Shown: positions 18,298-37,567 of the stretch, one piece after another
Layout of the letters: the number at the start of each line of letters is the position of its first letter
Numbering within the stretch: position 1 is the stretch's first letter
Assembly (NCBI GenBank): GCA_022826885.1
Contig: JAJDUB010000073.1
Span: forward strand, 65,388 to 129,387
Length of the DNA: 64,000 nt
Direction: 5' to 3'
Source of the DNA: Gammaproteobacteria bacterium
Lineage (GTDB): Bacteria > Pseudomonadota > Gammaproteobacteria > Eutrophobiales > Eutrophobiaceae
Translations under genes and position numbers: made by a program
Notes under the pieces: model-generated
Databases searched by the model: none
The model's input: the letters and a program-made list of their open reading frames with translations, nothing else
Told to the model about the DNA's origin: nothing

Positions 18298-18358
18298 GGT
18301 TCCCGTTGCGACTCAGTTTCCCGGTGTCCGGATTTTGCACATGTTCCACGTGCATCGT

Positions 18359-19018: not shown

Positions 19019-19063
19019 AAACCTGTTAAATTCACGCTTCAGCCAATGTAGAGGTGTGGGACG

Positions 19064-20218: not shown

Positions 20219-20231
20219 AACCGATCGCTCG

Positions 20232-22274
20232 CTAATGCAGGCATTGACGAAGTTCTCTCACCGTATCGACGATGCAGACCCGAGTGAAGTCCTCTCGTTT
20301 TCTCAACCTGGCTGTTATGGTATCTTCCCCGACAAAGCGCGTTATTCGTTTACCGTCCCCTACCGCAATTAAATGATGACGTTCCCTGTCACGATAACGT
20401 ATCCAGACTTTTTTCTCGTCTGTTATACCGAAATCGTTTATTTCAAGAAATTCGGCTACAGGGAATTGGGTAAAGTTTTTCTTTGTCCAATTGAATTCCC
20501 CTGTCTTCTTCCAGGAGGATTTTTTTGTAAGCGGACCGGACACTTCATATTCACCCAACTGAAGAAACCTGTCGTCATGGCCTGCTTCAACCCGTGATTG
20601 CCTCGTATGGTAATACCGCCGTACCCGGTTATCCGGCTTCTCATTCAAGAAATCAACGCCGTCGAAATCAACGCCCAGTTGCAACAACTCCGACATGGTT
20701 TTTGGTATGTCGGTTAGCGATATCTCAGCATCGACGGTTACCAGTTCGCCCCGTCCACCAGGTGGTTTAAGCAATAATAATGGATTGCTGTTGCCGATAT
20801 ACTTTGGAAAATTACGCACGTCGTCGTCAGGACCTGGCTTGAAATCCTGAAATGGCAAGTTCATCCCGTGGTCGCCATGTACCAGTATTGTTGCCGTGTC
20901 ATATATCCCGGAGCGTTTGAGTTTATCCAGCAACTTGACCACCTGGACCAGCGCACAGCGGGCCTGGTTATAGATATGGATGTATTCACGTTTGAGTTCC
21001 TTTTCCGAAAACCTGCAATTCGAGTCCGTAACAAAAGGCGGGTGAGGCGTAATCAGGTGAAACAGCTTATACACCCTGGACTGCTCTGCAAACCTGAACC
21101 TTTCAATCACTTCCTTCAGGAACTGAATGCCTATGTGATGGTTGAAAGTCAACCCCAGGTCCCGCGCATATAACCCGGAATACCTCCAGCGCCCCTGGTT
21201 GTATATTGATTTCTTAAGCAGTTTCGGCGCACTGCGAAACAATGACAAATCAAACAGGTAGGCAGTTTGATAATACACCACTTCCCGGACACTTATTGCA
21301 GAACTGTAAGGCTTGGGCATAAAGAAAAATTGCGAATAAAATTCCTGGTCCTTAATCACAATAAACGGGGTGGCGACATCGATTGTGAAACCGCTCCGTG
21401 TTGCCGCTTCCAGAATATTCGGGACATGTTTCACGGGCGTTGCCGTACCCATTCTGGCCACGCGGCTATTGAACAGGTAAGTTTTCATCGGTTCGTTATT
21501 CGTATATTCCCGGCCGGTGAGAAACGCTGCAAACGAAAGCTGTGTGACTTCGGACGCCGTCAAGGTATCGGGATAATACAAAAAACCGTCCAGTGCTGAT
21601 GCGATCTCATTGTCGTTCCTGATGACGTCCTGAAAAAGACCGGACTGAAATCCGTCCAGCACAATATGAAGTACGTTTTCTTTCCTGGAAAAATTGCTGA
21701 TCGCACTCATTTCAGTGTTCACATCCGGGCCTTCATCATCGGCCTCGTTGCCTGATGAAATCAGCGCCTCCAGGTTGGCCGGAATTTCGTCAAGGCTGTC
21801 GCTGCGTGATAATACCAGCACGCCCAGGTTGATAAGCTGGAACAGACAAATACCGGTAAACAACATCCTGATGTTGTCAAGCACCTTGTGCCTGAACGCG
21901 TATATGAGCCCACCGCTGAAACCGTAGATAATTAAATCCACGGCAATTTGCATTGTTGTGAAGGTATGCAGACCCTGGCCATCCAGGACGTTGAGGGACT
22001 CGCTTAACAAAAAAAACTGGATGGTACTGACGACTACGAGGAACAAAAGCGTATTGACAACCAACAGATGACTTCTTTTCCCTGCCAGGGTAATCATTGC
22101 GAAGATAACGATAAAAATTACGGCGCCGGCCTTGACCAGGAATACCCAGAACTCGAACAGCGGGATAATGAATTCACTGCTGTTCGTCACGAACAGGACA
22201 GCACATGGAACCACCGAGAGACAGATGGAAGCAGTTACTGCAATATACAAGTGGTTCGAAATAACACTCTTCAT
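20232..22274 (-). CDS. polytopic membrane sulfatase-like transferase (LtaS/OpgB/phosphoglycerol- or phosphoethanolamine-transferase-like)
   Basis: The N-terminal multi-TM region is followed by an alkaline-phosphatase-superfamily domain (VLHIVLDGFQSG, LTASEVTQLSFAAFLTG, HLITPHPPF, ILVHGDHG). I trimmed the start to ATG 22274-22272, which forms an ATGA overlap with the upstream stop. Confidence 0.7.
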   Translation of the reverse strand: MKSVISNHLYIAVTASICLSVVPCAVLFVTNSSEFIIPLFEFWVFLVKAGAVIFIVIFAMITLAGKRSHLLVVNTLLFLVVVSTIQFFLLSESLNVLDGQGLHTFTTMQIAVDLIIYGFSGGLIYAFRHKVLDNIRMLFTGICLFQLINLGVLVLSRSDSLDEIPANLEALISSGNEADDEGPDVNTEMSAISNFSRKENVLHIVLDGFQSGLFQDVIRNDNEIASALDGFLYYPDTLTASEVTQLSFAAFLTGREYTNNEPMKTYLFNSRVARMGTATPVKHVPNILEAATRSGFTIDVATPFIVIKDQEFYSQFFFMPKPYSSAISVREVVYYQTAYLFDLSLFRSAPKLLKKSIYNQGRWRYSGLYARDLGLTFNHHIGIQFLKEVIERFRFAEQSRVYKLFHLITPHPPFVTDSNCRFSEKELKREYIHIYNQARCALVQVVKLLDKLKRSGIYDTATILVHGDHGMNLPFQDFKPGPDDDVRNFPKYIGNSNPLLLLKPPGGRGELVTVDAEISLTDIPKTMSELLQLGVDFDGVDFLNEKPDNRVRRYYHTRQSRVEAGHDDRFLQLGEYEVSGPLTKKSSWKKTGEFNWTKKNFTQFPVAEFLEINDFGITDEKKVWIRYRDRERHHLIAVGDGKRITRFVGEDTITARLRKREDFTRVCIVDTVRELRQCLH

Positions 22275-23434
22275 CTGCCCGGCCCCCTGGCAGCTTCCAC
22301 CTCTGACAGAATTTGCAGCAGGCACCTGGCCCCGTAGACACCGCTTTCACCGGGGTTAAAGACCATGTTACCAGGCCCGGAACCGGTAATGGCCGACCGC
22401 TTCAACAGTCCCTCGATCTTCTCCGTTACCCGATCAATCTCATGCAGTCCGAGGATATCGCTACGCCCGGTTTTTCTGATCCTGCATTCCAGCGGCTCCA
22501 TGGCAATCCTGTGATGGTCCGGATTATTGACCTTCATCGGCACATCCACATACAACACCGGCTTGTTGAGAGCGAACATGTATTCGAGCGCCACTCCGGA
22601 CCAATCACTGATCATCATATCCGAGTCATGTAAAGTATCCTCACCCACAACGTTCAATTCATGGGTGAATAACGGATCCGCCTCGTATTGTGTCAAAATT
22701 GCGCCGACCTTGTCCCCGGCAAATTTAAGCGTCTGCGGATGGGGTCGAAGTGTTACCCGGTATTGGCCTCGAAGCAAGTGATCGACAATGGATGCACCAA
22801 TGCCCGATTCAATCATACCTCCAGGGCCCCAGGATGGAGCAACCAGTACATGACTGTGCGCTCCAGCGGAATTCTCTTCCCGGGAACGATCCCGGGACTG
22901 ACTGAGAATGGTATCCAGGCGGCCATATCCATGCTCCACCAGCCTCTTGGGACGCAGGTTGAATTCCGCTTCCATGGCCCGTATTTCCGTGATGTGGTGA
23001 GGCCCGGCGCAAAAAATCGTATCGTAATGATCAAACGCTCCTTTTCTATAAACCATATACAGACTTACCAGCGAATGCTGCACGTAGACGTAATGAACAT
23101 CATGTCGGGAACGCTTGACCTGGTACTGGTGCAGGTCGGGCATGGTCATGACGAAAACATTCGTTTCGATATTCCTGAACAACCAGTCCCGTACATGCCC
23201 CTCGTCAATCACGAATTTCCGGTAATCCGGATGCGCAATGAGTAAGCCGGGATCATCCTCATCCGAAGTGATATAACAAACCGGCACGTCTGACAGCGCC
23301 AGCACTTCCACAACCAGGGGTTGAAGGTGTGGCCAGTAATTCCTGCCTTCCGAATAGAAGGTGATCCGGCGGGTGCGTCCGGGCAGTTGAATATATCGGA
23401 TTACATTGCACAGGTGTTGAACGAATCTGAACAT
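22271..23434 (-). CDS. CDP-glycerol/polyol-phosphate glycerophosphotransferase-like protein (TagB/TagF family)
   Basis: 387 aa. HGYGRLD, VLVAPSWGPGG and SDMMISDWSGVALEYMF resemble the TagF-family motifs (GYPR.D, ILYAPTWR, SD.LITDYSS..FDF). Confidence 0.6.
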   Translation of the reverse strand: MFRFVQHLCNVIRYIQLPGRTRRITFYSEGRNYWPHLQPLVVEVLALSDVPVCYITSDEDDPGLLIAHPDYRKFVIDEGHVRDWLFRNIETNVFVMTMPDLHQYQVKRSRHDVHYVYVQHSLVSLYMVYRKGAFDHYDTIFCAGPHHITEIRAMEAEFNLRPKRLVEHGYGRLDTILSQSRDRSREENSAGAHSHVLVAPSWGPGGMIESGIGASIVDHLLRGQYRVTLRPHPQTLKFAGDKVGAILTQYEADPLFTHELNVVGEDTLHDSDMMISDWSGVALEYMFALNKPVLYVDVPMKVNNPDHHRIAMEPLECRIRKTGRSDILGLHEIDRVTEKIEGLLKRSAITGSGPGNMVFNPGESGVYGARCLLQILSEVEAARGPGR

Positions 23435-23468
23435 GGACGGGATCTAGCTCTGAGAGCCGGTGCGACCA

Positions 23469-24128
23469 CTATATTTTTCTGGCAAAAACCCGGCTGACGA
23501 GGGGGTCTTCCTGCTTGTATTTGGCCATGCCGGAACCGGTTACGGCATATTCTACGGAAAACCCGAGATTATCAATGAGTTTCAGTTGAAATTTATCCGT
23601 ATCCAGGTAACGCCGAAAATGATCCGGATAGTGTTTGTAACGGTCGGCATCCTCCTTAGTCCTGAATTCAAAAAAAACCCGCTCATTCGGTTTCATACAA
23701 TCAGAAAGCGCCTCCAGAAACCAGTCTTCTTCAGACTCATCCAGTGAGTGCAGAACAAAGCGGGAGTAATGCACCAGAAAACCGTTATTGTTTTTTTTTC
23801 GAGCGATCTGAACGACGTTTTCAACGTCCGGACGGCAGGACAGGTCACCCTGCAGAAATATGACTTTTTCATGAAGCCCTCTCAACCTGGCCTCATGAGC
23901 GCCAATTTTCACTGCTTCAGTGGATAAATCCATGGCTAACATCATGTGTCCTTGCGCGGCGAAGAACAGGGAGTCCCTGCCGTTACCGCTGCCCCAATCC
24001 ACTATGGTCGAATGTGAAGCAATTTCAGATGCAACCAGGGCGCAAAACTGGGTGGGCACCAGTGAATGCCGCTGCTTGTAGAACTCTCTCCAGTACGTTT
24101 TGCGCTGTTCACGGCTTCTGTTCGTCAT
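23469..24128 (-). CDS. class I SAM-dependent methyltransferase
   Basis: 219 aa with IVDWGSGNGRDSLFFAAQGHMMLAMDLS (motif I). Confidence 0.75.
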   Translation of the reverse strand: MTNRSREQRKTYWREFYKQRHSLVPTQFCALVASEIASHSTIVDWGSGNGRDSLFFAAQGHMMLAMDLSTEAVKIGAHEARLRGLHEKVIFLQGDLSCRPDVENVVQIARKKNNNGFLVHYSRFVLHSLDESEEDWFLEALSDCMKPNERVFFEFRTKEDADRYKHYPDHFRRYLDTDKFQLKLIDNLGFSVEYAVTGSGMAKYKQEDPLVSRVFARKI

Positions 24129-24176: not shown

Positions 24177-24422
24177 TCATTCTTCCTGAGACTTTTCAGG
24201 TTCAGGGTCCGGTTTGTCGGCGGATCGGGTCTGCCTGGTAAACAGCGCTTTCAGTTTGTACCAGTATGTTTTGACAGTTAATCCCAACGCTACAAAAAAG
24301 CCGATGATTAACGACATGATGGCACTGCCTGAGCCCGGATCAATATAAGCGACGGCAGGTAACCAGGCCGTAACCAGAACGGCAAATACAATAAACCGGA
24401 CGACCCACATAATTCGTTTCAT
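24177..24422 (-). CDS. small two-TM membrane protein (hypothetical)
   Basis: 81 aa from ATG 24422-24420 (the ORF track begins at TTG 24434). It has two hydrophobic helices flanking YIDPGSGS and an acidic/basic tail. The ATGA start/stop overlap with the upstream giant gene argues that it is translated. Confidence 0.55.
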   Translation of the reverse strand: MKRIMWVVRFIVFAVLVTAWLPAVAYIDPGSGSAIMSLIIGFFVALGLTVKTYWYKLKALFTRQTRSADKPDPEPEKSQEE

Positions 24423-27400
24423 GACTTTTTCCAATAGAATGAGAGCATCTGATTCGTGATAACATCCGGGGCGTGCTCGGAGCTTGGAGACTCCATTCTG
24501 AGATCGATTCCATCGCCAGCCATAATCTCTACCATGTCTTCTCCAAAATCAGTATACACCAAAGACTTCCCCCCCCCGGGCGCACTGTGGTAATGCCTGG
24601 GTAATACGAACACATCCTCCGGGCCGCTGGTATCCACCCTGAACACGGTTTTGGAACGCATCGGACGCTGTGAGGGTATGCTGAAGATATGCAAACCGCC
24701 TGGTTTAAGGATCCTGTTTACATCCTGGAAGCCGACAAAAGGCTTGCGAACATGTTCAAAGATATCCGAGGACAACACCAGGTCGAAGGAATTGTCTCCG
24801 TAAGTCAGGTTCATCAGATCCTGGCATTGAACGTCCTCGCGATACTCACCGGGAGCAACGTCTTCCCAGAAGTAGGAGTTAATGTAACCGGGCAGCTTCC
24901 GGAACAGTTTGCGGAACGGCCCTATCAGCCCGGGTTCATAAATCTTGAGATTCTGAAATTCGGCTTCGTTCACTAAATCGGCAAGGTGCCTGGAGCCTTC
25001 CCTGGAGAAATGATCAAGAATGAGTTGCGCCTGTTCCCGGTAACGCAGACTGGCTTCACAATTCCCACACCGGTATGTCTCCCTGATAGATTGTTCCTCG
25101 CGGCGCAGATAACCGGTATGCCCACACACCGCGCAGGAGTCAATGTACCCGTCCTTGTCGAAGTCAGCAGCGGCAGGCTTGCTGTGCGCTGCTTCGCGCC
25201 TGGCGAATTCCTTACCGACCAGTGTTAATATACGTGTCACCCTCTCGTCCCATGAGTTGGCTTCCAACAGATTCCGCATCCGTTCAATGTTGCCGGAGAC
25301 GGGGTTATTTTCCAGACAGTGGCTGATCCGCTCAATGAACTCGTCCGGGTTACGGCCAACCTGCACGAACTCGCGAAAATCCCCTATATTGGCAATGTGA
25401 GTGCTCACGACCGGCACATGCAGGGAAAAATACACATAGAGCTTCAGTGGATTCATACTCCGGGTAAGTTCGCTGTCCAGGTGGGGAATCATCGCCACGT
25501 CGAAGTGACGGATGTAGCGAAGCGCTTCCTCGTAGACACGAACTCCGAGGAAACGGACATTGCTGAATTTGTCCAGCTTCCTGATCTCCCTGCTCTTGTG
25601 CATGGAGCCGATGAAGACCAGGTTCCAGTCGGGCCGTTTGCTTGCCACGGTCGTCAACAGGTCGATATCGATGCGCGTGATGTCCAGGTTCCCGGCGTAC
25701 CCGATCACCGGTCCCTTGATGCGTCTCAACTCGGCGGGTTTTTTCCAGTGCCGCGCCTCATCTTCCAGTATCTCGGCCGCGTTGGGGAGCAAATGAATAT
25801 TATCAGCGTACTCCTGCATGTCTTCAAAGACACTGCGGCAATTGGCAAAAGTGACGTGAGTGCGCGCCAGGATCTCTTCATAGTTGCGGCGTAATTTCTC
25901 CTTGTATCGAGGCTTGCCGGGCCATTTACGTTGATCGTCGATCACGTCGGACACGACCAGGCCGGGCTTGAACCGATCCGCAATCATGGGGAAATCGAAT
26001 TTATTGGGGCAAACCCAGAAGACCGTGCGCCGTTGGCCGATCTGCTGCTCTCTCATCACCCGGGCCAGGTAATCGAGATAGTCCCCCTCAGCGGGCAGCA
26101 CCCAGTTCCGGAAACCTGAGGCACGATGCCGACCGGCGAAGATGAACGTATCGGAACGAACTTTACCCCTGTCCTGCAGGCGCAATCTCCGTTTCAGGGT
26201 ATTGGAAAGAACCAGGCCGGCATGACTGTGACGGCCACCTTGCCCGGACTTGAGAACGTCATGACCGGAACTGAAGATATTGACCGGCGCATCAAAATGA
26301 AGAATACGGTTAACCCGGGGGTCCCTGGCCAGGTACTTCACCAGCATATCCTGGCGCCGTCCGTAAATGCCGGTATCGTTTTGTTTCCAGAAAAATACGA
26401 TGTCTATCTTGTCGTCGACATAAGAACCGGCCTTGCGTACGTTAACGTCCGCTGCCTGGGCGGAGGGTGGAAGCAGACTTGCATCAGAAGCAGGCTGACC
26501 TCCCGCGACGACCTGCGCGCTCACCCGGGGCAAACCGGTCTCACCGGAGAATATCCTGCGGTGATAGGCGACCAGTTCGCGGAATGCATCCGGTATCGGA
26601 ACCGGATTGTTCAAAACCCGGTCGATGGTATCCTGCAGCCTGGGCAGGTTGGCGGCGTAGCTGTATTCACGTAAAAAAATCTCCCGGTTTTGCGTCGCCT
26701 TGTGTTTGTATGCATCGTAATCGCTGAAGATCTCATCGATCTTCCTGTCCAGTGGCGTATCGCCCAATAACTCCAGCAGTCCCTTCTTCGCGAGATTCAC
26801 CAGGGGCGGCACATCTGTCGCCAATACCGGAATACCCATCGAAAGTCCGTCCGAGAACTTGCCGGGCATTTGAAACCGGGTGGTAACCTGCTCCATGTCC
26901 TGGAGCAGGCAAATCAGGTCGCCGGCACTCAGGTAGCCGGGTAAATCAGTGAATGGCACGTTGGGAACCACTTTCACATGCGCGGACTTGATGCCGGCGA
27001 AAAATCGGCGCGCCTCGTTGTCCACCGGGGAACCGACGATCAGCAGCTTGTAGTCCGGGCGCTTCAGGGTCTCCAAAGCCGTCACAATGCGCGTGAAGCC
27101 CTTGTGCATTCGGGGTGTGCCGGCGAACAGGATAACCTTATCTTCCGCAGTGAAGCCAAGTTCCGCACGGATCGCATCACGCGGGTAGGCAGCCGGGTCA
27201 AAATCGTGATCGTCGCGGATATGCGGCAATACCATGCCGCCGAATTTCTTCCTCAATTCCTCATTGGAGACTGTGACCTGATCGAACATCTGTATAAGTG
27301 ATTCGCCGTAACGGGTCCAGGTCTCGTCATGCGGACAGAAAAAGTCCGGCCTGTGACGTTTTCGTTTCACCTGCTTCAGTGAAAGTGGTTTACGGTTCCT

Positions 27401-29524
27401 GAAAAATCCCGGTTCGTAGTCGTCCACGTCCACAATAACCGGCCGGTTCCTGTGTAACTTGGCGAGGATAGCGAGTTCCAGTCCGGGCAACCTCGGTTTG
27501 GATACATAAATGACATCCCCTTCTATCTGCCGGGCGATGTCCTCCATACGCTTGAAATGCTCCGGAAAGTTACTTCCGGGGAAACTTTTTACGGCAACCC
27601 GGCTGCAGTTGCGCAGCGGTTCCCAGACCTCGTTCCCGAATCGGGGAAATTGGGCGCCGATCAGATCAACGTCGTAATTGTGCCGCAAAACATCTGCAAG
27701 CAAATAGGCGCGGCCAAGAGGATTGTGCCCTAAATCCCATGTGATGACCGTAATCTTCGTTCTGGATTCACCGGCAGCGGGCTGCTTTCGTACGTCCGGG
27801 CGCTGTGCTTGCCCACGCTCCCGGACAAGCTTTGCCAACCGATCCGTTAACCCAGGTTGCCCTGCTTCAGGGAGCGTAGCGGTTTTTCTTCCTGATTTTG
27901 CCCGTGCGTTGCGAACGGCCTCGATAACTCGGGAAAACCGGCCAGTGCTCAACCATAAAAAAAAAATGACCGCCCGGCGCAGCTTTCCCAGGAGCCATCT
28001 GACACAACGCGACAGCACGCGCAACGGGGCGGTGATTTTCCAACTGGTCGAGTTATACAGTTCACCGATCGTCCTGTTGCGGTCCTCCAGCGTCGCAGTG
28101 CGAGACTTCAGCGTCGCAGTGCGTTCCTCCAGACTGCTCCTCAGACGCCTCGCTGATGCCTCCAGGGTTTTGATCCTCTTTTCACGAGCCTTCAGCGTCG
28201 CAGTCCGTTCCTCCAGGTTGCCCCTCAGCCGTTCTGCAGAACCCTCCAGGGCTTCGATCCTCTTTTCGCGAGCCTTCAGCGTCGCAGTCCGTTCCTCCAG
28301 GTTGCCCCTCAGCCGCTCTGCAGAACCCTCCAGGGCTTCGATCCTCTTTTCGCGAACCTTAAGCATCTCACCGCGCACCTCCAGTTTGCCTCTCAGCCGG
28401 GTTCCGGATTCTTCAAGCGCTTTTATCCGTTCGTCGCGGATTCTCAGGGTTGCAGTACGCTCCTCCAGCCTGCTCCTCCACTGGTCCAGCGAACTCTCCA
28501 GCGCATTGATCCGCTCCTCGCGTACCTTCAATGCCGCAGCATGCTCATCCAGGTTGTCCCTCAACAGGCCCACCGAAGCCTCCAGGGATTCAATCCTTGC
28601 TTCACTGAGCTTCACCGATGCGCTCAACTCTTGTGTCCTGTCGTTATGAAGGTTGAACGACACCTCTACCGATTCCAGATCAAGCAGGGCTTGTCTGGTC
28701 GCTCCCGAAACCGGAATGTTCAGGTCGCCATCAAAAACCTCATCACTGCGAAGGCGCAGCCAGAGCGCACGCTGTGACGGCAAAAGGTAATTCTCCGTCT
28801 CCTCATCGGTCGCCCTTTGGCGGTGAAGGTCGAGGTCAATGAACTGCTCGATAAGTCCGCTGTCCGGTTTTATCGAATGCCCTCCTCCCGGCCCTTCAAG
28901 TTCCTTAACGAGTGCATTCAATGTTTCAACCGGGTGTTGCATGAGTACTTCGTATGAAAGAGAAATGCGCGCCAGACCCTCGGATGCCTTCAAAGCGTGG
29001 AGATTGTATACCTCCCAGAGGGCGAGCCCTGCGGAGATACTGAAACCGTTGCGCGCCTGCAGGGAACGCGCAACTTCGAGAGGGTTACGATAGATATGGA
29101 CGCAAACGGGATTGTTTACATAGTGTCGCAAAACCGGCAGCAGAAGGCAGAGACGCGGCTCCTTGATGACCCAGGCCTGAAATTTGTCCAGTTCGGAAAC
29201 AATCCTTTCAAACTTTCGGCGTTGCTCGTCCTGCGCCGCGCGCGGGATGGCTTTCGGATCGAAGTTGGCGATCTTCCACCAATCGGCTCCCGCCGAATGC
29301 AACATCCGATCGCACAGTTCGCGCATGTCACGCCTTTCCCAGAACCCCTGGGGATTCTCGGCATTCGCCTCCGTAAGTTCCTTTTCTTCCCCTACCCACA
29401 CATCGCAGTGCCGCAGCGCCCCCGTTATGGCGCTGGTGCCCGACCGGTGCATTCCGAGCACAAAAAGTGCCGGTCTGGTGCTTTTCTCATCCAGGTTCTG
29501 TGAGACGATGTTATCGATTTTCAT
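24419..29524 (-). CDS. 1701-aa multidomain glycan assembly protein: sulfotransferase, 6 x 28-aa coiled coil, two GT-B glycosyltransferase domains, Zn-ribbon SAM methyltransferase
   Basis: aa 18-37 LFVLGMHRSGTSAITGAL is a sulfotransferase PAPS-loop-like motif. aa 306-473 are heptad-rich 28-aa repeats, followed by STSWKITAPLR. aa ~590-960 look GT4-like (ILFAGTPRMHKGF.., GIPVLATDVPPL). aa ~1000-1440 form a second GT-B domain (VIGYAGNLDITRID.., NPLKLYVYFSLHVPVVST). aa ~1470-1701 carry CAVCGH..CGNCEAS plus FDLVLSSDIFEHVRKPFVGFQDVNRILKPGGLHIFSIP. Confidence 0.8.
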   Translation of the reverse strand: MKIDNIVSQNLDEKSTRPALFVLGMHRSGTSAITGALRHCDVWVGEEKELTEANAENPQGFWERRDMRELCDRMLHSAGADWWKIANFDPKAIPRAAQDEQRRKFERIVSELDKFQAWVIKEPRLCLLLPVLRHYVNNPVCVHIYRNPLEVARSLQARNGFSISAGLALWEVYNLHALKASEGLARISLSYEVLMQHPVETLNALVKELEGPGGGHSIKPDSGLIEQFIDLDLHRQRATDEETENYLLPSQRALWLRLRSDEVFDGDLNIPVSGATRQALLDLESVEVSFNLHNDRTQELSASVKLSEARIESLEASVGLLRDNLDEHAAALKVREERINALESSLDQWRSRLEERTATLRIRDERIKALEESGTRLRGKLEVRGEMLKVREKRIEALEGSAERLRGNLEERTATLKAREKRIEALEGSAERLRGNLEERTATLKAREKRIKTLEASARRLRSSLEERTATLKSRTATLEDRNRTIGELYNSTSWKITAPLRVLSRCVRWLLGKLRRAVIFFLWLSTGRFSRVIEAVRNARAKSGRKTATLPEAGQPGLTDRLAKLVRERGQAQRPDVRKQPAAGESRTKITVITWDLGHNPLGRAYLLADVLRHNYDVDLIGAQFPRFGNEVWEPLRNCSRVAVKSFPGSNFPEHFKRMEDIARQIEGDVIYVSKPRLPGLELAILAKLHRNRPVIVDVDDYEPGFFRNRKPLSLKQVKRKRHRPDFFCPHDETWTRYGESLIQMFDQVTVSNEELRKKFGGMVLPHIRDDHDFDPAAYPRDAIRAELGFTAEDKVILFAGTPRMHKGFTRIVTALETLKRPDYKLLIVGSPVDNEARRFFAGIKSAHVKVVPNVPFTDLPGYLSAGDLICLLQDMEQVTTRFQMPGKFSDGLSMGIPVLATDVPPLVNLAKKGLLELLGDTPLDRKIDEIFSDYDAYKHKATQNREIFLREYSYAANLPRLQDTIDRVLNNPVPIPDAFRELVAYHRRIFSGETGLPRVSAQVVAGGQPASDASLLPPSAQAADVNVRKAGSYVDDKIDIVFFWKQNDTGIYGRRQDMLVKYLARDPRVNRILHFDAPVNIFSSGHDVLKSGQGGRHSHAGLVLSNTLKRRLRLQDRGKVRSDTFIFAGRHRASGFRNWVLPAEGDYLDYLARVMREQQIGQRRTVFWVCPNKFDFPMIADRFKPGLVVSDVIDDQRKWPGKPRYKEKLRRNYEEILARTHVTFANCRSVFEDMQEYADNIHLLPNAAEILEDEARHWKKPAELRRIKGPVIGYAGNLDITRIDIDLLTTVASKRPDWNLVFIGSMHKSREIRKLDKFSNVRFLGVRVYEEALRYIRHFDVAMIPHLDSELTRSMNPLKLYVYFSLHVPVVSTHIANIGDFREFVQVGRNPDEFIERISHCLENNPVSGNIERMRNLLEANSWDERVTRILTLVGKEFARREAAHSKPAAADFDKDGYIDSCAVCGHTGYLRREEQSIRETYRCGNCEASLRYREQAQLILDHFSREGSRHLADLVNEAEFQNLKIYEPGLIGPFRKLFRKLPGYINSYFWEDVAPGEYREDVQCQDLMNLTYGDNSFDLVLSSDIFEHVRKPFVGFQDVNRILKPGGLHIFSIPSQRPMRSKTVFRVDTSGPEDVFVLPRHYHSAPGGGKSLVYTDFGEDMVEIMAGDGIDLRMESPSSEHAPDVITNQMLSFYWKKS
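28106..28609. repeat. six tandem 84-bp (28-codon) repeats inside the giant gene; copies at 28190-28273 and 28274-28357 are nearly identical
   Basis: Read directly: ccttcagcgtcgcagtccgttcctccaggttgcccctcagccg(t/c)tctgcagaaccctccagggcttcgatcctcttttcgcga occurs twice with an 84-bp period and only about 2 mismatches. The flanking units are more diverged. The protein units run VREKRIEALEGSAERLRGNLEERTATLK. Confidence 0.9.
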
Positions 29525-29526: not shown

Positions 29527-30282
29527 TCAGGCCGCCTGCCTGTATTCCTGTAGCACCTCCTGTATCGGTCCGCGGGCCTTGACTTTACCGGCATCGAGCA
29601 GGACCCCAGTGGTGCAGATGCGTTCCAGCAGGGAGAGGTTCTGCGAGGCAACCACCAGAATTCTGGCGCGGTCCATGAAATCATCAAGCCGGCGCCTGGC
29701 CTTGTCGACGAAGATCCGGTCACCGACGCTGAGCCATTCGTCCATCAACAGTATCTCAGGATCAAAGCAGGTACATACCGCGAAGGCGAGGCGCAGCCGC
29801 ATACCGTTCGAGTAAGTGTGTACCGGCATAGCCAGGTAGTCGCCCAGTTCAGTGAACTCCGCAACTTCATCCATACGCTCGCGCACCTCATCCGGCATAA
29901 GGCCCAGGAACAATCCGCGCATCATGATGTTTTCGTAGCCCGTCGCCTCGGGGTCGATTCCCAGGGAAATATTCAGCAGCGCAGCGGTTCTCCCATGCCG
30001 CACCACACTGCCGCGTGTCGGTTCATAAGCGCCTGCGAGAACTCGAAGCAACGTCGTCTTGCCCGCGCCGTTGCATCCGATGAGCCCAACTCTCTCCCCG
30101 TGTTCGAACGCGAGGCTGACATTTTCAAGTGCGCGTACACACAACCGATTACCCGCGTCGCGCCCGATACGCCCGCCGGTGCCATGATGCAAAATGCGAT
30201 GCTTCAGCGAACGCGTGCTGGTGTTATAGATCGGAAAAACGACCGTGACTGCATCGAGTTCAAGGTTCGCCATGGCGCTCAC
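29527..30282 (-). CDS. wzt: polysaccharide/O-antigen ABC transporter ATP-binding protein (short form, no C-terminal carbohydrate-binding extension)
   Basis: 251 aa with Walker A GCNGAGKTTLL, signature-like YSNGMRLRLAF and Walker B ILLMDEWLSVGD. Overlaps wzm by 4 nt. Confidence 0.88.
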   Translation of the reverse strand: MSAMANLELDAVTVVFPIYNTSTRSLKHRILHHGTGGRIGRDAGNRLCVRALENVSLAFEHGERVGLIGCNGAGKTTLLRVLAGAYEPTRGSVVRHGRTAALLNISLGIDPEATGYENIMMRGLFLGLMPDEVRERMDEVAEFTELGDYLAMPVHTYSNGMRLRLAFAVCTCFDPEILLMDEWLSVGDRIFVDKARRRLDDFMDRARILVVASQNLSLLERICTTGVLLDAGKVKARGPIQEVLQEYRQAA

Positions 30283-31184
30283 ACCCAGTACGCCACTCGC
30301 CGGCGGTAATTACGGAACATATCCAAAGCCACGAGCCAGCCACCCAGCGTCATACCCAAAACCGTAATCCAGGAGACAAGCTGCGGCGCCTGTCCCAGCA
30401 ATGGCGCCCGCACCAACTCCAAATAGTGAAAAAACGGGTTGAAATCCAGCAATATGGCGCGGCCGGGCAATAATTCGGGCATCCAGATGATCGGCGTAAC
30501 GAAAAAGGCTATCCGTACGATACTGTCCATGACAGGCGGCACATCGCGGAAGCGGGCCGAGACAAGACCGAACAACAACCCCATCCATACGCCGTTCAGG
30601 CACAGGAGAACGAGACCCGGAACAACGAGTAATCCGGTCCAACCCGGCCAAATCGAGAAGATGATGGCGACTACGACAAAAATCGCGGCATTATGGAAAA
30701 ATATGAGCAGGTTGCGCCATATCACGCGATAAACATGCACCGACAAGGGCAGGTCTACCTGCTTGATTATGCTCCCGGCATCGGTAAACGCGCTGCAGCC
30801 TTCATTGATAAAGCCGGAAATCAGGGTCCAGATGATAAATCCAAGCGCAAGAAACGGCGCATAATCTGCTATTTCAACCTTCAACAAGGCGCCGTACAGT
30901 ACACTCAGTGCCGCCACGAGTACGCCCATGCTGATGGTAAGCCAGAACGGGCCGATCATGGAACGCCGATAACGCCGGCGGACGTCCTGCCAGCCGAGCA
31001 ATCCCCACAGGTGGAAGCTGCGCGCGCCTTTGCTCAGGTCAAGCAGGGCGGCGGCAATCTGTGAGGCGGCAGGCGACTGAGACACCGGTACGGTTTGTGG
31101 TCCGAACCCGTCGCCTGAGGTATCTATCGTCTCATCGTCTCGGGTTGCGCTGGGGACTTTTTCCTGGATCTGGTGACTCTGCAT
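30279..31184 (-). CDS. wzm: polysaccharide/O-antigen ABC-2 type transporter permease
   Basis: 301 aa. A hydrophilic N-terminus is followed by about six TM helices (..RRYRRSMIGPFWLTISMG.. is typical of ABC-2/Wzm). Coupled to wzt. Confidence 0.85.
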   Translation of the reverse strand: MQSHQIQEKVPSATRDDETIDTSGDGFGPQTVPVSQSPAASQIAAALLDLSKGARSFHLWGLLGWQDVRRRYRRSMIGPFWLTISMGVLVAALSVLYGALLKVEIADYAPFLALGFIIWTLISGFINEGCSAFTDAGSIIKQVDLPLSVHVYRVIWRNLLIFFHNAAIFVVVAIIFSIWPGWTGLLVVPGLVLLCLNGVWMGLLFGLVSARFRDVPPVMDSIVRIAFFVTPIIWMPELLPGRAILLDFNPFFHYLELVRAPLLGQAPQLVSWITVLGMTLGGWLVALDMFRNYRRRVAYWV

Positions 31185-31366: not shown

Positions 31367-32383
31367 GTGGAAGCGGTACTAGTCACTCTGGTTGCCGGGT
31401 TGGTGTCCGCCCTTCTTACGTGGATGCTTGTTCGTGCGGCGCTGAAGCTTTTGATTGCATATAACGTTGTCGACCGGCCCGGCACACGCTCCAGCCATGG
31501 AGGGAACGTTCCCACGGGCGGAGGTATTGCAGTTATCGGCGTGGTTCTGACAAGCTGGATGTGTCTGGCCCTCATCACCGGCACGCTTGGAGAGACCCTG
31601 ATCATCGTGACTGCAGCGGCTGTACTGGCAGGGATTTCCTTTATAGACGATATAAGACATGTCCCGAAGTTGGCGCGCCTCACAACCCATATCGCTGCCG
31701 TTGCCCTGGGGATTACCCTGTTGCCTGATACGGCGCTGCTGTTCGGCGGAGTGCTGCCGCCCTGGGCGGATCGTCTGGTGACCGGTGTAGCCTGGGTCTG
31801 GTTCATCAATCTTTTCAACTTCATGGATGGGATCGACGGGATCACGGGCGTCGAAACCATCGCGGTGGCGGGGGGTGTGGCAACGGCTCTGTTGCTCATG
31901 GCGCCGATAGAGAGCAGCGTCTGGTCGAAAGCATCGCTGGCTGCCGTGCTGGCAGGCGCGGCAGCGGGTTTTCTCGTGCTTAACTGGCATCCGGCGCGCC
32001 TGTTCCTGGGTGATGCAGGGAGTGTCCCGCTCGGTTACCTGCTGGGCTGGTTGCTGGTCTGGACCGCCTGTGTCGCGGGTCTCTGGTGGCTGGCACTGGT
32101 GTTGCCGTTGTACTACTGGGCCGACGCCACACTTACCCTACTGGCGCGGGGCTCGCGGGGAGAGAAAGTCTGGCTCGCCCATCGTCAGCACGCTTACCAG
32201 GTCGCGGTCAGGTCGGGAGCGAGTCACGCCGATGTGGCAGGGTTTATTGCCTTGATTAATCTCGCGCTGGTCGGGCTGGCGTTGGCGGCGACAGTCAGGC
32301 TGATTCCCGTCTGGTCAACCATTACCCTGGCCGTCGTCCTGGCTGCGATGGCACTGTGGCGTCTGCGCCACTGGCCCGATTGA
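31367..32383 (+). CDS. family 4 glycosyltransferase, undecaprenyl-phosphate HexNAc-1-phosphate transferase (WbpL/WecA/MraY-like)
   Basis: 338 aa, polytopic, with VVDRPGTRSSHGGNVPTGGGIA and NLFNFMDGIDGI motifs. GTG start. Divergent from wzm. Confidence 0.85.
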   Translation: MEAVLVTLVAGLVSALLTWMLVRAALKLLIAYNVVDRPGTRSSHGGNVPTGGGIAVIGVVLTSWMCLALITGTLGETLIIVTAAAVLAGISFIDDIRHVPKLARLTTHIAAVALGITLLPDTALLFGGVLPPWADRLVTGVAWVWFINLFNFMDGIDGITGVETIAVAGGVATALLLMAPIESSVWSKASLAAVLAGAAAGFLVLNWHPARLFLGDAGSVPLGYLLGWLLVWTACVAGLWWLALVLPLYYWADATLTLLARGSRGEKVWLAHRQHAYQVAVRSGASHADVAGFIALINLALVGLALAATVRLIPVWSTITLAVVLAAMALWRLRHWPD

Positions 32384-32421
32384 AATTTACCGCCATTTAT
32401 CCAATAAATCTGACGCTTAAG

Positions 32422-33363
32422 ATGCCCTTGACTAAAAGTAATACCGCCGCGAGTGCTGGTCGGGCTATTTCTGGTCCGCACTCATCGAAAGAACGCGGTT
32501 TTGAAAATAATATTCCAAAAGAACTCTTTTTGTATTGGCATCAGGGCTGGAATAACGCACCGGAAATCGTTAATCACTGTGCTGCCACATGGCAAAGGCA
32601 CAACCCAACCTGGGACATCAACCTATTGGACTCAACCACCATAGCAGATAAAGTCAGGCTCCCGGCAGCCCTTAAATCCATGAACCTGCCGCTCCCCGCA
32701 CTTTCAGACGTAATAAGAATATGCTTGCTTAAAAAGTATGGCGGTGTCTGGGCAGACGCCACACTCTGGTGTGTACGACCGTTGGATGACTGGATAGATA
32801 ACGTGTGTGTTCGCACCGGCTTTTTTGCCTACGACAAACCAGGCCCGGATCGCCCCATCAGCAGTTGGTTTCTGGCAGCCGGCAAGGAATGCCGCATCGT
32901 TGATATCTGGCACTCCGCAGTACTGCATTTATTGGCAAAGACGCAAGCACATGCTCGATTCAGGTGGGTTTTCGACAATAAGGAAAAGAACTGGCTGCTG
33001 AATTCGCTCAGCCGACTGTGTATGGGTTACCTATTGCAACGCTACCAGTACGGACATTTACTGGTTACATCTTCCGATGATCCTGAAGATGATAACTATT
33101 TCTGGTTCCACTACCTGTTCGGGAAATTGCTGGAACAGAACAGTGAGTTCCGTCAACTCTGGGCATCAACCCCCAAGATAAGCGCGGACGGCCCCCAGTT
33201 ATTACGACGTGGAGGACTCCTGGAACCGGCAACGGACCGCACCAATCTCCTGATAAGAGAAAAAGTTTCAAACGTGCATAAGCTGACGCACCGTGCGGCT
33301 TTACCTGATGATATTACCGGGACGGTCCTGGATTCCCTTTACCAGTCCGGTGAATGTAACTGA
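32422..33363 (+). CDS. GT32/capsular-polysaccharide-synthesis-type glycosyltransferase
   Basis: IPKELFLYWHQGWNNAPEIV..WQRHNPTWDINLLD..LSDVIRICLLKKYGGVWADATLWC resembles the Caps_synth / Och1-like DXD family. I trimmed the start to ATG 32422, downstream of the previous stop. Confidence 0.65.
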   Translation: MPLTKSNTAASAGRAISGPHSSKERGFENNIPKELFLYWHQGWNNAPEIVNHCAATWQRHNPTWDINLLDSTTIADKVRLPAALKSMNLPLPALSDVIRICLLKKYGGVWADATLWCVRPLDDWIDNVCVRTGFFAYDKPGPDRPISSWFLAAGKECRIVDIWHSAVLHLLAKTQAHARFRWVFDNKEKNWLLNSLSRLCMGYLLQRYQYGHLLVTSSDDPEDDNYFWFHYLFGKLLEQNSEFRQLWASTPKISADGPQLLRRGGLLEPATDRTNLLIREKVSNVHKLTHRAALPDDITGTVLDSLYQSGECN

Positions 33364-33368
33364 CGCTG

Positions 33369-34988
33369 ATGCGAATCCACGAATACCTGCTCGATTTCTT
33401 TATGACGCTTTTTGCATTGTCGTCTCTGGCGTTATGGGGGATCGTCCTGTCCGGGGGCTCGTTCAGGGCCTACGCTATCCTGGCGTTGCTGGTCCCACTG
33501 GTTTCCGTTTACCTGGTTTTCATAAACAGTCGGGGACATATTCCTCCCGATCCCGATAATACCGCCCCCGAACGCTACGGAAATCGATTTGGGGTTGAAA
33601 CCATAGCGATCTTTGTGCTGCTTCTGTTGATTTTCTTATCCAAATCCGAACCAGTAACGCTTGTACTGCTATTGGTTGCATTGTTTCTGTTCCTGAGACA
33701 AACAAAGACTCAACCATGGCTTTTCACCTCATCTTCCATTCTGGAAAGATCGCCACTCGTACCCGGCGCCGCGCTGGTGATTGCCGTTACCTATACCCTG
33801 GTTTCACATCGATACGATCCGGACGATGCTCTCTACCTGTTTTACGGACTGCTGCCCCTGGACCAGCCCTTGCAGGAAATGAACCTCTTCCCATTCTACG
33901 ACACGGCCAAGATGACGGTCAGTTACCCGACCATTGAAGCGGTGGCTTCATATTGGACCGGCACCAGTTTCCTGCAGGTGTATTACCTCGTCGTTCCTGC
34001 CCTGGCGGCGATGCTGACCGTACTTGCCTATTACGGGCTGTTTCAGCGGCTCGGCGGCAGTTATGCGGGCGTGTTAACGCTGATGACCGTCATTATTCTG
34101 ATACTGTGGGCTGACAAGCACCAGGCTCCCGGCAATGATACCTTCGTACGATTGTACCAGGGCAAGTCAATATTTTATGCCGTGGTCTGTCCTTACCTCA
34201 TCAGTTCGGCAATCGGTATCCTGACGCGTTTCCCCGGAAGCAGTTTTCGTCTGGCAATGGCCAGCATTACGGGTATCGGCCTGACCCAGTCCGCAATCAT
34301 TTTGATACCCCTGTTTTTTGCGGGCTTGACTGTAACAGCATGGATAATCTACCGGGAACCACTCAGACACGCGCGCTACCTGCCCTTCCTGGTCGGTGGC
34401 GCCTCATTCCTGGTGTTGGGTATCTTTATGACAGCCAGCCTGGGGGGTATTCCTACCGCAAAAAATCTCAGATTTGACACCCTTCACGAAGCCCTTGATT
34501 TCAGGTACGGCGACGGGCTACGCGGATATCTCGGCATTGCAAGTATATGCCTGCTACCCCTGCTTGCACACAATGCTGCCAAACATAAAGCGACTATCGC
34601 GCTGAGCGCCGGACTGGCACTGGTTGTGTTGAATCCAGTCATTGTCTTTCTGGTCGCCAAAATCGCCTGGTCATTAGCCTGGCGCCTGCAATGGCTGCTA
34701 CCGGTAGCGGGGCTGGTGGCTGTAGGAATATATCTTGTGGCTGATTTCATCGCACGCGGCAAGCCGTATTTACGACTGTTGCTTTGCGCCCTGGGTTTGA
34801 TCGGATTTGCCATGCTCGGCCAGACAACATTTTATAAACATAACCGTAATGCCATTGGAATTCCGCAGATCAAACCACCGCCCACCATAAACGGGGTTTT
34901 CGAGCGCCACCACAACGGCCGTTACAAGCTCCACGCCGAATATCTCCTGGAAGACGGGCGTATCTGCATGGCGAACGGATGTTACTGA
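33369..34988 (+). CDS. polytopic membrane protein, possible GT-C-type glycosyltransferase (hypothetical)
   Basis: 539 aa with at least 10 hydrophobic segments. An early loop contains RYDPDDALYLFY, reminiscent of the acidic first-loop motif of GT-C enzymes. I recognise no stronger motif. Confidence 0.4.
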   Translation: MRIHEYLLDFFMTLFALSSLALWGIVLSGGSFRAYAILALLVPLVSVYLVFINSRGHIPPDPDNTAPERYGNRFGVETIAIFVLLLLIFLSKSEPVTLVLLLVALFLFLRQTKTQPWLFTSSSILERSPLVPGAALVIAVTYTLVSHRYDPDDALYLFYGLLPLDQPLQEMNLFPFYDTAKMTVSYPTIEAVASYWTGTSFLQVYYLVVPALAAMLTVLAYYGLFQRLGGSYAGVLTLMTVIILILWADKHQAPGNDTFVRLYQGKSIFYAVVCPYLISSAIGILTRFPGSSFRLAMASITGIGLTQSAIILIPLFFAGLTVTAWIIYREPLRHARYLPFLVGGASFLVLGIFMTASLGGIPTAKNLRFDTLHEALDFRYGDGLRGYLGIASICLLPLLAHNAAKHKATIALSAGLALVVLNPVIVFLVAKIAWSLAWRLQWLLPVAGLVAVGIYLVADFIARGKPYLRLLLCALGLIGFAMLGQTTFYKHNRNAIGIPQIKPPPTINGVFERHHNGRYKLHAEYLLEDGRICMANGCY

Positions 34989-37542: not shown

Positions 37543-37567
37543 AGAAATTAATCACATAGAAATAACT

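Follow-up and report, generated by a model that had tools for sequence, protein, structure and literature searches.

An open reading frame with an ATG start on the minus strand (24419..29524) of the window, i.e. the whole 64,000-nt stretch of DNA that was analysed, encodes a 1701-aa protein in which a predicted sulfotransferase and two glycosyltransferase (GT) modules are separated by a coiled-coil stalk. There is about an even chance that this protein is a polymerase-terminator ruler of the WbbB or Klebsiella pneumoniae O7-ORF6 type, with sulfation as the cap and with export independent of this cap. The domain order is sulfotransferase head, coiled coil, STSWKITAPLR motif, amphipathic segment, GT module 1, GT module 2 and finally a Cys4 ribbon with a methyltransferase. 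The product would be an ABC-transporter-dependent, rhamnose-containing surface glycan of an uncultured gammaproteobacterium, probably an O antigen.

The reading frame is based on the ORF call, on Pfam matches, which were judged by their bit scores against the curated cut-offs, and on more than 40 full-length homologues with the same architecture (59-96% identity) from independent assemblies, including single-contig MAG chromosomes. A chimeric mis-assembly or frameshift fusion, which the initial annotation had named among the findings that would undo its interpretation, is therefore excluded. In some metagenome assemblies the homologous gene is split inside the coil, and the split copy in L062 showed a break in overlapping frames between head and motif, as expected from a frameshift. 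The domain order given in the initial annotation, with two GT-B modules, a Cys4 ribbon and a terminal methyltransferase, was confirmed by Pfam, AF2 models and alignments, and four of the Pfam families it had proposed for annotation (Sulfotransfer_3, Glycos_transf_1, Glyco_trans_1_4 and Methyltransf_11) all scored above their cut-offs.

The sulfotransferase head (aa 18-270, 28715..29473, minus strand) was delimited by Pfam, invariant columns, AF2 and Foldseek. Sulfotransfer_3 matched aa 18-210 with 34.5 bits compared to a cut-off of 27, at a modest E-value of 3e-8. The 5'-PSB loop comprises G24-M-H-R27-S-G-T-S31 and the 3'-PB motif R146-x7-S154. While M25-H-R-S-G-T-S31, R146, P148 and S154 are invariant in the alignments A1 and A3 (40-42 homologues), G24 has no exception in A1 and reaches a conservation of at least 90% in A3; E63 and K121-E-P-R124 are likewise invariant among the aligned homologues. 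Altogether, the PAPS-binding and candidate catalytic residues showed no variation over at least 40 homologues with identities down to 41%. Mapped by motif order and without superposition, R27, E63 and K121 may correspond to the catalytic Arg78, Glu99 and Lys158 of TPST2 (PMC10951654). PDB sequence searches with the head gave nothing significant, and a weak profile alignment with Stf9 placed the head motifs on the P-loop and the RDPxxxxxSL motif of Stf9. All 16 Foldseek PDB matches of the AF2 model (mean pLDDT 86.5) with E<=0.001 were sulfotransferases (CurM/OLS, TPST1/2, Stf1; best E-value 5e-7). A lack of PAPS-binding residues in the N-terminal domain had been regarded beforehand as evidence against the interpretation; these residues are present and invariant, and the modelled fold is that of a sulfotransferase. 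The head is accordingly described as a predicted PAPS-type sulfotransferase, with the fold taken from the model and the intact PAPS-binding motifs from the sequence.

The subsequent stalk (aa 286-488, 28061..28669, minus strand) was determined by Pfam coil families, AF2 and heptad analysis. Coil-type families (Cast, Myosin_tail, SMC) matched aa 282-483 in Pfam, NCBIfam also gave coil-type matches, and the AF2 model showed a continuous helix from aa 274 (274-329 in the model). About 185 residues (aa ~300-481) lie in one heptad register, corresponding to ~27-31 nm if fully coiled, and the predicted stalk would hold the head about 30 nm from the GT modules. The 'a' position comprises 96% L/I/V/A, and at the 'd' position Leu and Arg alternate, so that an oligomeric, rigid coil is a tentative prediction, which counts against the ruler. 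Repeat analysis revealed six tandem 28-aa (84-bp) units (aa 314-481, 28082..28585, minus strand), preceded by a less regular unit, so that the 168 aa of six heptad repeats claimed in the initial annotation hold true and share one register. TRF found the 84-bp period at 28100-28399. The units aa 398-425 and 426-453 are identical in 80 of 84 nt, which points to a recent duplication.

Among 85 homologues the spacer between head and motif ranged from 62 to 534 aa. Its length was 2 mod 7 in 63 of them, and 31 of the 52 distinct lengths fell into this class (binomial p = 5e-14), while the internal stalk periods were 14, 21, 28 or 42 aa. These lengths indicate that the stalk changes between relatives in whole heptad steps. 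The head varies as well. In other phyla, Methyltransf_24 heads are attached to the same GT-GT core, and in L016 and L054 a coil-like segment separates such a head from the GT; L024 has methyltransferase heads of another kind. The sulfotransferase head itself belongs to a very large family, in which coil-like sequence directly follows the head in 38 of 38 long representatives compared to 8 of 38 control windows. The bodies behind this sulfotransferase-coil unit differ (GT2, GT4 and others), and in every multidomain protein of the family that was scanned the head was fused to a glycosyltransferase body. Four MAGs contain natural head-less derivatives with intact polymerase and transporter, so the head appears dispensable for making and exporting the polymer.

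The STSWKITAPLR motif (aa 492-502, 28019..28051, minus strand) was found by alignment, and the pattern SxSW[KR]xxxPxR is present in nearly all of 120 homologues. It overlaps with a basic segment (aa 495-545, 27890..28042, minus strand) identified by hydrophobic moment, charge and hydropathy. The ~30 residues after the motif are amphipathic, with a net charge of +4 to +6 and a hydrophobic moment of up to 2.0; no transmembrane helix was found in aa 495-545, where the 19-mer hydropathy peaks at 1.27, below the transmembrane level. Of the two possibilities named before, amphipathic or hydrophobic, the former therefore applies, and we infer a putative in-plane membrane anchor.

GT module 1 (aa 591-1005, 26510..27754, minus strand) was assigned by Pfam, AF2 and Foldseek, with Glycos_transf_1 at aa 782-940 (51.4 bits vs. 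26.4). GT module 2 (aa 1036-1445, 25190..26419, minus strand), assigned by Pfam, NCBIfam and AF2, comprises Glyco_trans_1_4 at aa 1272-1406 (74.8 bits vs. 27) and a local TuaH-like match in NCBIfam. The AF2 model of the body is of moderate confidence (mean pLDDT 69.9), and its Foldseek matches were MshA, PimB', BshA, WaaG and PimA with target-normalised TM-scores of ~0.58-0.70. Profiles and model assign both modules as predicted GT4-like GT-B glycosyltransferases.

At the C-terminus, the cysteines C1464, C1467, C1486 and C1489 of the Cys4 zinc ribbon (25058..25135, minus strand) are invariant in the 25 homologues of alignment A2. The ribbon is inserted at the N-terminus of a class I SAM methyltransferase (aa 1464-1701, 24422..25135, minus strand), which was assigned by Pfam (Methyltransf_11/25/23) and alignment. 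Methyltransf_11 matched aa 1564-1614 with 39.5 bits vs. 21.2, covering only profile positions 45-95, and A2 showed no variation in the variant motif I (EPGxxGP) or in the DLVxSSDxxEHV block. A paralogue of this domain is encoded as a stand-alone methyltransferase at 18359-19018. Many relatives lack the fused methyltransferase (P0043, P0053, P0059), and in L008 and L010-L015 a methyltransferase gene is located just upstream of wzm instead. The most likely role of the domain is the O-methylation of sugars that the neighbouring GT modules produce.

The gene follows wzm (ABC-2 permease by domain annotation, 30279..31184) and wzt (ABC transporter ATPase, 29527..30282), both on the minus strand. The end of wzt and the start codon of the 1701-aa gene are 2 nt apart, wzm and wzt overlap by 4 nt, and the order wzm-wzt-gene is conserved in L001-L015 and L021. 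This arrangement upholds the previously claimed coupling to wzm/wzt and predicts co-transcription and translational coupling. The Wzt comprises 251 aa with ABC_tran as its sole Pfam domain and no C-terminal carbohydrate-binding module. The same holds true for the relatives with wzm-wzt directly upstream (L001-L015, L021), in which Wzt has ~250 aa after correction of ORF over-calls. By annotation, rmlA, rmlD, rmlB and rmlC for dTDP-L-rhamnose synthesis are found at 14148..17635 (minus strand), and rml genes are also neighbours of polymerase-core homologues in over 20 loci from different phyla; dTDP-L-rhamnose is likely the donor for the polymer. A divergent operon (31367..34988, plus strand), conserved in L001-L006, was annotated as a WecA-like initiating transferase (31367-32383), a Caps_synth-type GT (32356-33363) and a DUF6077 membrane protein (33369-34988). 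Accessory genes annotated between the 1701-aa gene and rml (17638..24128, minus strand) encode a methyltransferase, TagF-like, LtaS/sulfatase-fold and YidC-like proteins, followed by two more methyltransferases. The methyltransferase/TagF-like/LtaS/YidC-like cassette occurs in some relatives and is missing from others.

For the ruler, the following mechanism is proposed. The amphipathic segment would anchor an oligomeric coiled coil by its base to the inner membrane, on the cytoplasmic side and beside both GT modules, which would lengthen an undecaprenyl-diphosphate-linked chain begun by the WecA-like enzyme. The sulfotransferase at the tip of the stalk, ~30 nm off, would reach only the non-reducing ends of sufficiently long chains. 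Sulfation of the acceptor hydroxyl would halt elongation, and the stalk length would therefore set the modal chain length. By means of the tandem 14/21/28/42-aa repeats the stalk could grow or shrink by whole heptads, so that relatives would carry rulers of ~9 to 79 nm. Since Wzt comprises no carbohydrate-binding module, the cap would not be read by the transporter, unlike in the WbdD and WbbB systems, and termination would control the chain length but would not gate export. The absence of this module together with the intact head-less derivatives implies that the sulfate cannot be an obligatory export signal.

An extended coiled coil is the mark of the polymerase-terminator strategy, and the terminator is always located at the coil end distal from the polymerase (PMC11231755). 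The sulfotransferase, N-terminal to the coil and distal from the amphipathic segment and the GT modules, sits exactly at this position, which supports the ruler. Further support comes from the methyltransferase heads at the same position on the same core, methyl being established terminator chemistry, as well as, indirectly, from the heptad-step coil lengths, and from the conservation of the sulfotransferase-coil unit across a very large family. On the other hand, the nearest structural relatives of the head in Foldseek act on tyrosine or acyl intermediates and not on sugars, no PAPS-synthesis genes were found within the window, and no sulfate-capped O antigen is reported in the literature searched, all of which counts against a sulfate-cap ruler. 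In all terminated systems, Wzt contains a carbohydrate-binding module reading the cap (PMC11231755). The structural statements of the initial annotation stand. So does its comparison with WbdD and WbbB, as the sulfotransferase occupies the coil end of the terminator (PMC11231755). The Wzt without this module and the head-less derivatives do not fit the classical model.

A different explanation would be that the head decorates internal residues of the nascent chain, resulting in a polyanionic sulfated rhamnan, with the coil only as oligomerisation scaffold or spacer and the length controlled by coupling of polymerisation and export, as in K. pneumoniae O2a and other systems whose Wzt lacks a carbohydrate-binding module. 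This is less probable than the ruler. Nonetheless, it agrees with the Wzt found here, with the apparently still functional head-less variants, and with the polysaccharides of marine bacteria that carry sulfate in each repeat (e.g. PMC11766843, PMC11641403); repeat-driven drift would also cause heptad steps in any coiled coil, ruler or not. However, a decorating enzyme would gain nothing from a separation of 9-79 nm from the polymerase, the sulfotransferase-coil unit is kept whatever the polymerase body, and methyltransferase heads with coil-like segments take the same position.

It is improbable that chains are in fact terminated by a methyl cap from the C-terminal methyltransferase, while the head serves another acceptor, e.g. 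a lipid or protein. E. coli O8, K. pneumoniae O5 and the rhamnan system of Geobacillus WsaE provide methyl-cap parallels. Methyl caps are established terminators (PMC11231755), relatives without the fused methyltransferase (L008, L010-L015) have a gene for it immediately before wzm, and the non-sugar acceptors of the structures closest to the head point in the same direction. Contrary to this, many relatives lack the fused domain, the three further methyltransferases of the locus point to bulk O-methylation, and the head is joined to a glycosyltransferase body throughout the multidomain proteins scanned. That the head is a dead sulfotransferase fold binding a nucleotide or glycan, or the ORF an artefact fusing separate genes, is very improbable: the modest Pfam E-value, the missing PDB sequence match and the copies split within the coil are outweighed by the invariant PAPS-binding and candidate catalytic residues, by the frameshift-like break in L062 and by one uninterrupted ORF in over 40 assemblies of independent origin, complete chromosomes among them, due to which the artefact was rejected.

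Returning to the sulfate-cap ruler, it is proposed with some reservation, at less than even likelihood, that sulfation represents a third termination chemistry delivered by a widespread module, on a ruler of expandable repeats and with a cap that is not an export ticket. If true, sulfate would join methyl or methyl-phosphate and Kdo as chain terminators in ABC-transporter-dependent glycan synthesis, thousands of uncharacterised protein clusters would contain the sulfotransferase-plus-coiled-coil module, and in this lineage the surface-glycan length could shift quickly by expansion and contraction of the tandem heptad-multiple repeats.

In comparison with known systems, enzymes of the Sulfotransfer_3, TPST, CurM-ST and Stf1 type resemble the head in their fold and in both binding motifs (5'-PSB, 3'-PB), but the known members are stand-alone or embedded in polyketide synthases and use tyrosine, acyl-ACP or trehalose-type acceptors. 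No description of such an enzyme linked to a glycan polymerase through a coiled coil, or of any sulfotransferase-coil-polymerase protein, was found in the searchable literature; within the limited scope of this search, the combination is undescribed, as had been supposed. The O-antigen cluster of Aeromonas salmonicida contains a sulfotransferase-domain gene (216 aa) between wzt and wbbB, which was left unexplained by its authors, encoding a separate small protein without coil, next to a Wzt of 438 aa; the published O-antigen structure showed no sulfate (PMC4483657).

WbdD of E. coli O9a/O8 (K. pneumoniae O3/O5) is a coiled-coil ruler with distal catalytic domains and a proximal amphipathic membrane-binding helix (PMC11231755), in which the coil length sets the chain length (PMC11231755; PMC3482155). 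In contrast to the single polypeptide described here, its polymerase WbdA is separate and recruited, its anchor lies at the extreme C-terminus behind N-terminal catalytic domains, its cap is methyl or methyl-phosphate and its Wzt has a carbohydrate-binding module. ORF6 of K. pneumoniae O7 (methyltransferase, kinase, CBM, coiled coil, GT2, GT2) is all-in-one like the present protein, with the terminator at the distal N-terminus and two C-terminal GT modules that are responsible for the rhamnose in the O7 repeat (PMC11231755). Its cap, however, is methyl-phosphate from a methyltransferase-kinase pair, its modules are GT2 (GT-A fold) instead of GT4-like GT-B, and O7 export needs the cap, since polymer of a kinase-dead mutant stays unexported; the same need exists in the other terminated systems, in which Wzt has a carbohydrate-binding module.

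Neither WbbB nor any other glycan terminator or its coiled coil matched the present protein in PDB sequence searches, and membership in the WbbB family proper was rejected, as no WbbB chain matched and the head is Sulfotransfer_3 and not GT99. While the head of WbbB is a GT99 beta-Kdo transferase whose Kdo cap is read by the carbohydrate-binding module of its Wzt, the present protein combines a sulfotransferase and an additional C-terminal methyltransferase with a Wzt without this module. Nonetheless, WbbB of K. pneumoniae O12 and Raoultella terrigena shows the same order of N-terminal terminator, coiled coil and two GT modules in one polypeptide, and likewise belongs to an ABC-transporter pathway with a rhamnose-containing polymer (PMC11231755).

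The large gene on the minus strand (24419..29524) opens with an ATG and specifies a protein of 1701 aa, in which Pfam recognised Sulfotransfer_3 (aa 18-210, 34.5 bits against a cut-off of 27), coil-type families (aa 282-483), Glycos_transf_1 (aa 782-940), Glyco_trans_1_4 (aa 1272-1406) and Methyltransf_11 (aa 1564-1614). The STSWKITAPLR motif was located at aa 492-502, and the four cysteines of the zinc ribbon (1464, 1467, 1486 and 1489) were invariant in an alignment of 25 homologues. These results bear out the domain order read in the initial annotation. NCBIfam gave just a local likeness to the TuaH/TuaC glycosyltransferases and to SMC-type coils. Since the start codon lies 2 bases behind the end of wzt, and wzm and wzt overlap by 4 bases, the three genes are translationally coupled, which confirms the coupling described before. 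Altogether, the feature is real and its first description was correct.

A search of 5.8 billion proteins yielded 620 relatives, among which P0001-P0041 showed the same architecture as the 1701-aa protein at 59-96% identity. In a scan of species-representative genomes, full-length copies were present in seven uncultured Gammaproteobacteria MAGs (loci L001-L007), several of which are single-contig chromosomes, and the GT-GT core was also found in Alphaproteobacteria, Myxococcota, Cyanobacteria, Actinobacteria and others. The MAG names (RHO3, APA and SB bins) suggest that the hosts are sponge-associated bacteria. A mis-assembled fusion of separate genes, considered as an objection in the initial annotation, is ruled out by full-length homologues in more than 40 independent assemblies, complete chromosomes included. 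On a 17-kb contig of a metagenome assembly (ENA ERZ25067264, locus L062, 3019-7981), the homologue is broken up by a frameshift-type change between head and motif, so that a sulfotransferase ORF of 339 aa overlaps a second ORF of 1326 aa. Judged from matching contig sizes, a similar split seems to affect several other head-lacking homologues (P0033, P0038 and P0079), and such copies may reflect either sequencing errors or real on/off variation.

The sulfotransferase head was compared in two alignments, A1 with 40 full-length relatives and A3 with 42 relatives, most of them represented by the head only, the identity reaching down to 41%. The residues M25, H26, R27, S28, G29, T30, S31, E63, R64, K121, E122, P123, R124, R146, P148 and S154 were invariant in both, while G24 was invariant in A1 and conserved to at least 90% in A3. 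These columns make up the two motifs of PAPS enzymes, the loop for the 5'-phosphosulfate and the R-x7-S motif for the 3'-phosphate. The possibility of a head without PAPS-binding residues had been raised beforehand; the motif columns are instead conserved throughout the 40 and 42 relatives. An AF2 model of aa 1-330 reached a mean pLDDT of 86.5 and contains an uninterrupted helix starting at residue 274. Compared with the PDB by Foldseek, this model gave 16 matches at E<=0.001, all of them sulfotransferases (CurM and olefin-synthase domains, TPST1, TPST2 and Stf1). PDB sequence searches returned nothing useful, whether run with the complete protein, with just the head or with a profile of the head, and the head was identified by the fold search only. 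A marginal profile alignment with Stf9 falls on the P-loop and the RDPxxxxxSL of that enzyme. Going by motif order only, R27, E63 and K121 plausibly correspond to Arg78, Glu99 and Lys158, the catalytic residues of TPST2 (PMC10951654). The genes cysD, cysN and cysC for PAPS synthesis were not found within the 64-kb window.

With the head alone as query, the family comprised 17,754 clusters at 50% identity for E<=1e-3 and 11,454 for E<=1e-10, and in the best 150 clusters the head was almost always N-terminal. Coil-like sequence followed the head directly in all 38 long representatives compared to 8 of 38 control windows further along the same proteins, as counted with a crude home-made detector, and the bodies behind head and coil vary (GT2, GT4 and alginate-lyase-like domains). 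Therefore, sulfotransferase plus coil constitutes a conserved module carried by many polymerases. Stand-alone sulfotransferase-coil proteins, sought as WbdD-like arrangements, have glycosyltransferases and methyltransferases nearby and no wzm/wzt within 8 kb. Two representatives of the head family, P0253 (2068 aa) and P0301 (2592 aa), combine an N-terminal sulfotransferase head, coil-like sequence and modules of the GT2 and GT-B (Glycos_transf_1) types with a C-terminal alginate-lyase-like domain, and a lyase domain on a glycan-assembly protein is unexpected.

The stalk keeps a single heptad register from about aa 300 to 481, in which position 'a' is occupied to 96% by L/I/V/A and position 'd' alternates between Leu and Arg. 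The six 28-aa heptad units noticed initially were recovered at aa 314-481, with an 84-bp period detected by TRF at 28100-28399. Since the adjacent units aa 398-425 and 426-453 (28166-28333, minus strand) share 80 of 84 nt, compared to 46-64 for the other unit pairs, a recent tandem duplication in the stalk is indicated. Between the conserved LLDLES at the head end and the SxSW[KR]xxxPxR motif, the spacer of this protein comprises 212 aa, corresponding to about 31 nm if 0.1485 nm per residue is assumed, while among 85 homologues the shortest had 62 aa and the longest 534 aa (about 9-79 nm). Divided by 7, the spacer length left a remainder of 2 in 63 of these 85 proteins, of 6 in fourteen and of 3 in six. 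Counting distinct lengths, 31 of 52 belonged to the main class (binomial p = 5e-14, which overstates the independence of these related homologues). For most proteins, the internal period of the stalk was 14, 21, 28 or 42 aa; only two deviated, with periods of 25 and 32. From this quantisation it follows that the stalk grows and shrinks by whole heptads, so that head and base stay in phase. A transmembrane anchor after the coil is ruled out, as no segment attains transmembrane hydropathy. The post-stalk stretch is basic (net charge +4 to +6) and amphipathic, with a hydrophobic moment that reaches 2.0, and by analogy with the base of WbdD we infer that it may serve as an in-plane membrane anchor.

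For the body, the AF2 model of aa 585-1701 was of moderate confidence (mean pLDDT 69.9), and Foldseek matched it to the GT4 GT-B enzymes MshA, PimB', BshA, WaaG and PimA with target-normalised TM-scores of about 0.58-0.70. The C-terminal methyltransferase retains a variant motif I (EPGxxGP) and a DLVxSSDxxEHV block, and is a paralogue of the stand-alone methyltransferase encoded at 18359-19018. Where the big protein is without this domain (L008 and L010-L015), a homologue of the domain is encoded immediately upstream of wzm. Outside the phylum, Methyltransf_24 heads were found on the GT-GT core of L016, L054 and L061; head and GT are separated by a coil-like segment in the first two, while in L061 the flagged stretch is shorter. 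Further heads were Methyltransf_23/25 (L024), TPR (L026) and GT2 (L028), and some loci were headless. To judge from these domain assignments, different heads are swapped onto one GT-GT core.

According to PMC11231755, export in every terminated system is licensed by Wzt, which recognises the cap through a carbohydrate-binding module. The Wzt encoded here comprises 251 aa with an ABC_tran domain only. In the relatives with wzm-wzt directly upstream of the big gene, Wzt measured about 250 aa after correction of ORF over-calls. The long wzt ORFs of L002, L003, L008, L010-L013, L015 and L021, which had suggested such a module, are N-terminal over-calls overlapping wzm. In addition, four alphaproteobacterial MAGs (L010, L011, L013 and L014) encode headless derivatives from which aa ~37-363 are deleted. 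In these proteins, for example at 9848-12985 of L010, only residues 1-36, in which the P-loop is degenerate, remain before the junction, and the final stalk portion and the motif follow directly. Head and most of the stalk are thus gone, while base and GT-GT body are intact and wzm and wzt are kept. Since Wzt is without the module and the headless derivatives retain an intact polymerase and transporter, a cap, if there is one, is not the ticket for export.

Altogether, we give about an even chance to a polymerase-terminator resembling WbbB and the O7 ORF6, with a sulfate cap and cap-independent export. The sulfotransferase at the far end of the membrane-anchored stalk would sulfate, and so block, the non-reducing end of chains that are long enough; changes in stalk length driven by the repeats would retune chain length, and export would proceed independently of the cap. 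The small Wzt is also compatible with a head that sulfates internal residues, in which case the stalk would be a scaffold only and length would be set via export coupling, as for other Wzt proteins without the module. This main rival explanation is possible, if rather unlikely. Methyl transfer is an established terminator chemistry (PMC11231755), and the C-terminal methyltransferase could be the true terminator of a protein whose distal end bears the sulfotransferase; this we consider improbable. That the head is dead, or that the architecture is an artefact, is very improbable in view of the conserved head columns and the independent assemblies. A methyl-sulfate cap, conceived by analogy with methyl-phosphate, was set aside as chemically implausible in our own judgement.

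The order wzm-wzt-big gene and rmlABCD are conserved in the relatives, and rml genes stand beside the GT-GT core even in Myxococcota and Firmicutes loci. Since they accompany the core across phyla, rhamnose is indicated as substrate. A four-gene cassette at 19064-24128 (minus strand) encodes a methyltransferase, a TagF-like glycerophosphotransferase, a 697-aa membrane protein of the LtaS/sulfatase fold and a YidC-like (60KD_IMP) paralogue, the latter being unusual within a glycan locus. As the cassette is found in some close relatives and not in others (L001, L004, L005 and L007 compared with L002, L003 and L006), it behaves like a movable modification module. A divergent operon at 31367-34988 (plus strand), conserved in L001-L006, comprises genes for a WecA-like initiator, for a GT of the Caps_synth type and for a membrane protein of 539 aa with DUF6077, which might be a membrane glycosyltransferase or ligase-like protein. 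At 39239-43761 (minus strand), a GFO/IDH/MocA oxidoreductase and a DegT-type aminotransferase are fused in one protein of 710 aa, whose neighbours are a UDP-sugar dehydrogenase (41420-42724) and an epimerase/dehydratase (42751-43761); together they look like a fused WbpB/WbpE-type pathway to a 3-amino uronic acid sugar. The two sugar-biosynthesis blocks are separated by a region of lower G+C (35751-38343, about 0.51) with short ORFs only, and the ORFs 36680-37165, 35074-35751 and 38343-38906 in or beside it gave no match in the Pfam scan. An RTX-repeat protein of 1447 aa, in which HemolysinCabind stretches occur nine times, is encoded at 43923-48266 (plus strand), where the GC skew is strongly positive (+0.26 at 46-48 kb), and a small RTX protein of 225 aa at 3470-4147 (minus strand).

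Chain-length control by a coiled-coil ruler is an established concept derived from a few enterobacterial prototypes, whose caps are methyl, methyl-phosphate or Kdo and whose transporter reads the cap. The principle is thus known, whereas the components found here are new. If the proposed reading holds true, sulfate would be a new cap chemistry for ruler systems, termination would be uncoupled from export, and a very large unexplored family would be opened (the 11,454 head clusters). Near-identical enzymes with stalks of about 9-79 nm, differing by whole heptads, offer a natural experiment by which the ruler can be tested without protein engineering. Length and charge of the surface glycan might plausibly influence host recognition, which is speculation.

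In agreement with the initial annotation, which had regarded the combination as undescribed, the searchable literature contained no description of a glycan polymerase to which a coiled coil tethers a sulfotransferase, nor of sulfate as a chain terminator, although an earlier passing mention is possible. The nearest mention found concerned Aeromonas salmonicida, where a sulfotransferase gene of 216 aa, left unexplained, lies between wzt and wbbB (PMC4483657). In function and architecture, WbbB (O12) and ORF6 (O7) are closest to the 1701-aa protein, followed by WbdD. It does not belong to the WbbB family, since it is without the GT99 head and without detectable homology, and it differs from the characterised terminator class in one defining feature, the carbohydrate-binding module of Wzt. 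The ruler logic would be recognisable to a specialist, while the sulfate chemistry, the cap-independent export, the family size and the series of stalk lengths constitute a testable extension of the ruler model.
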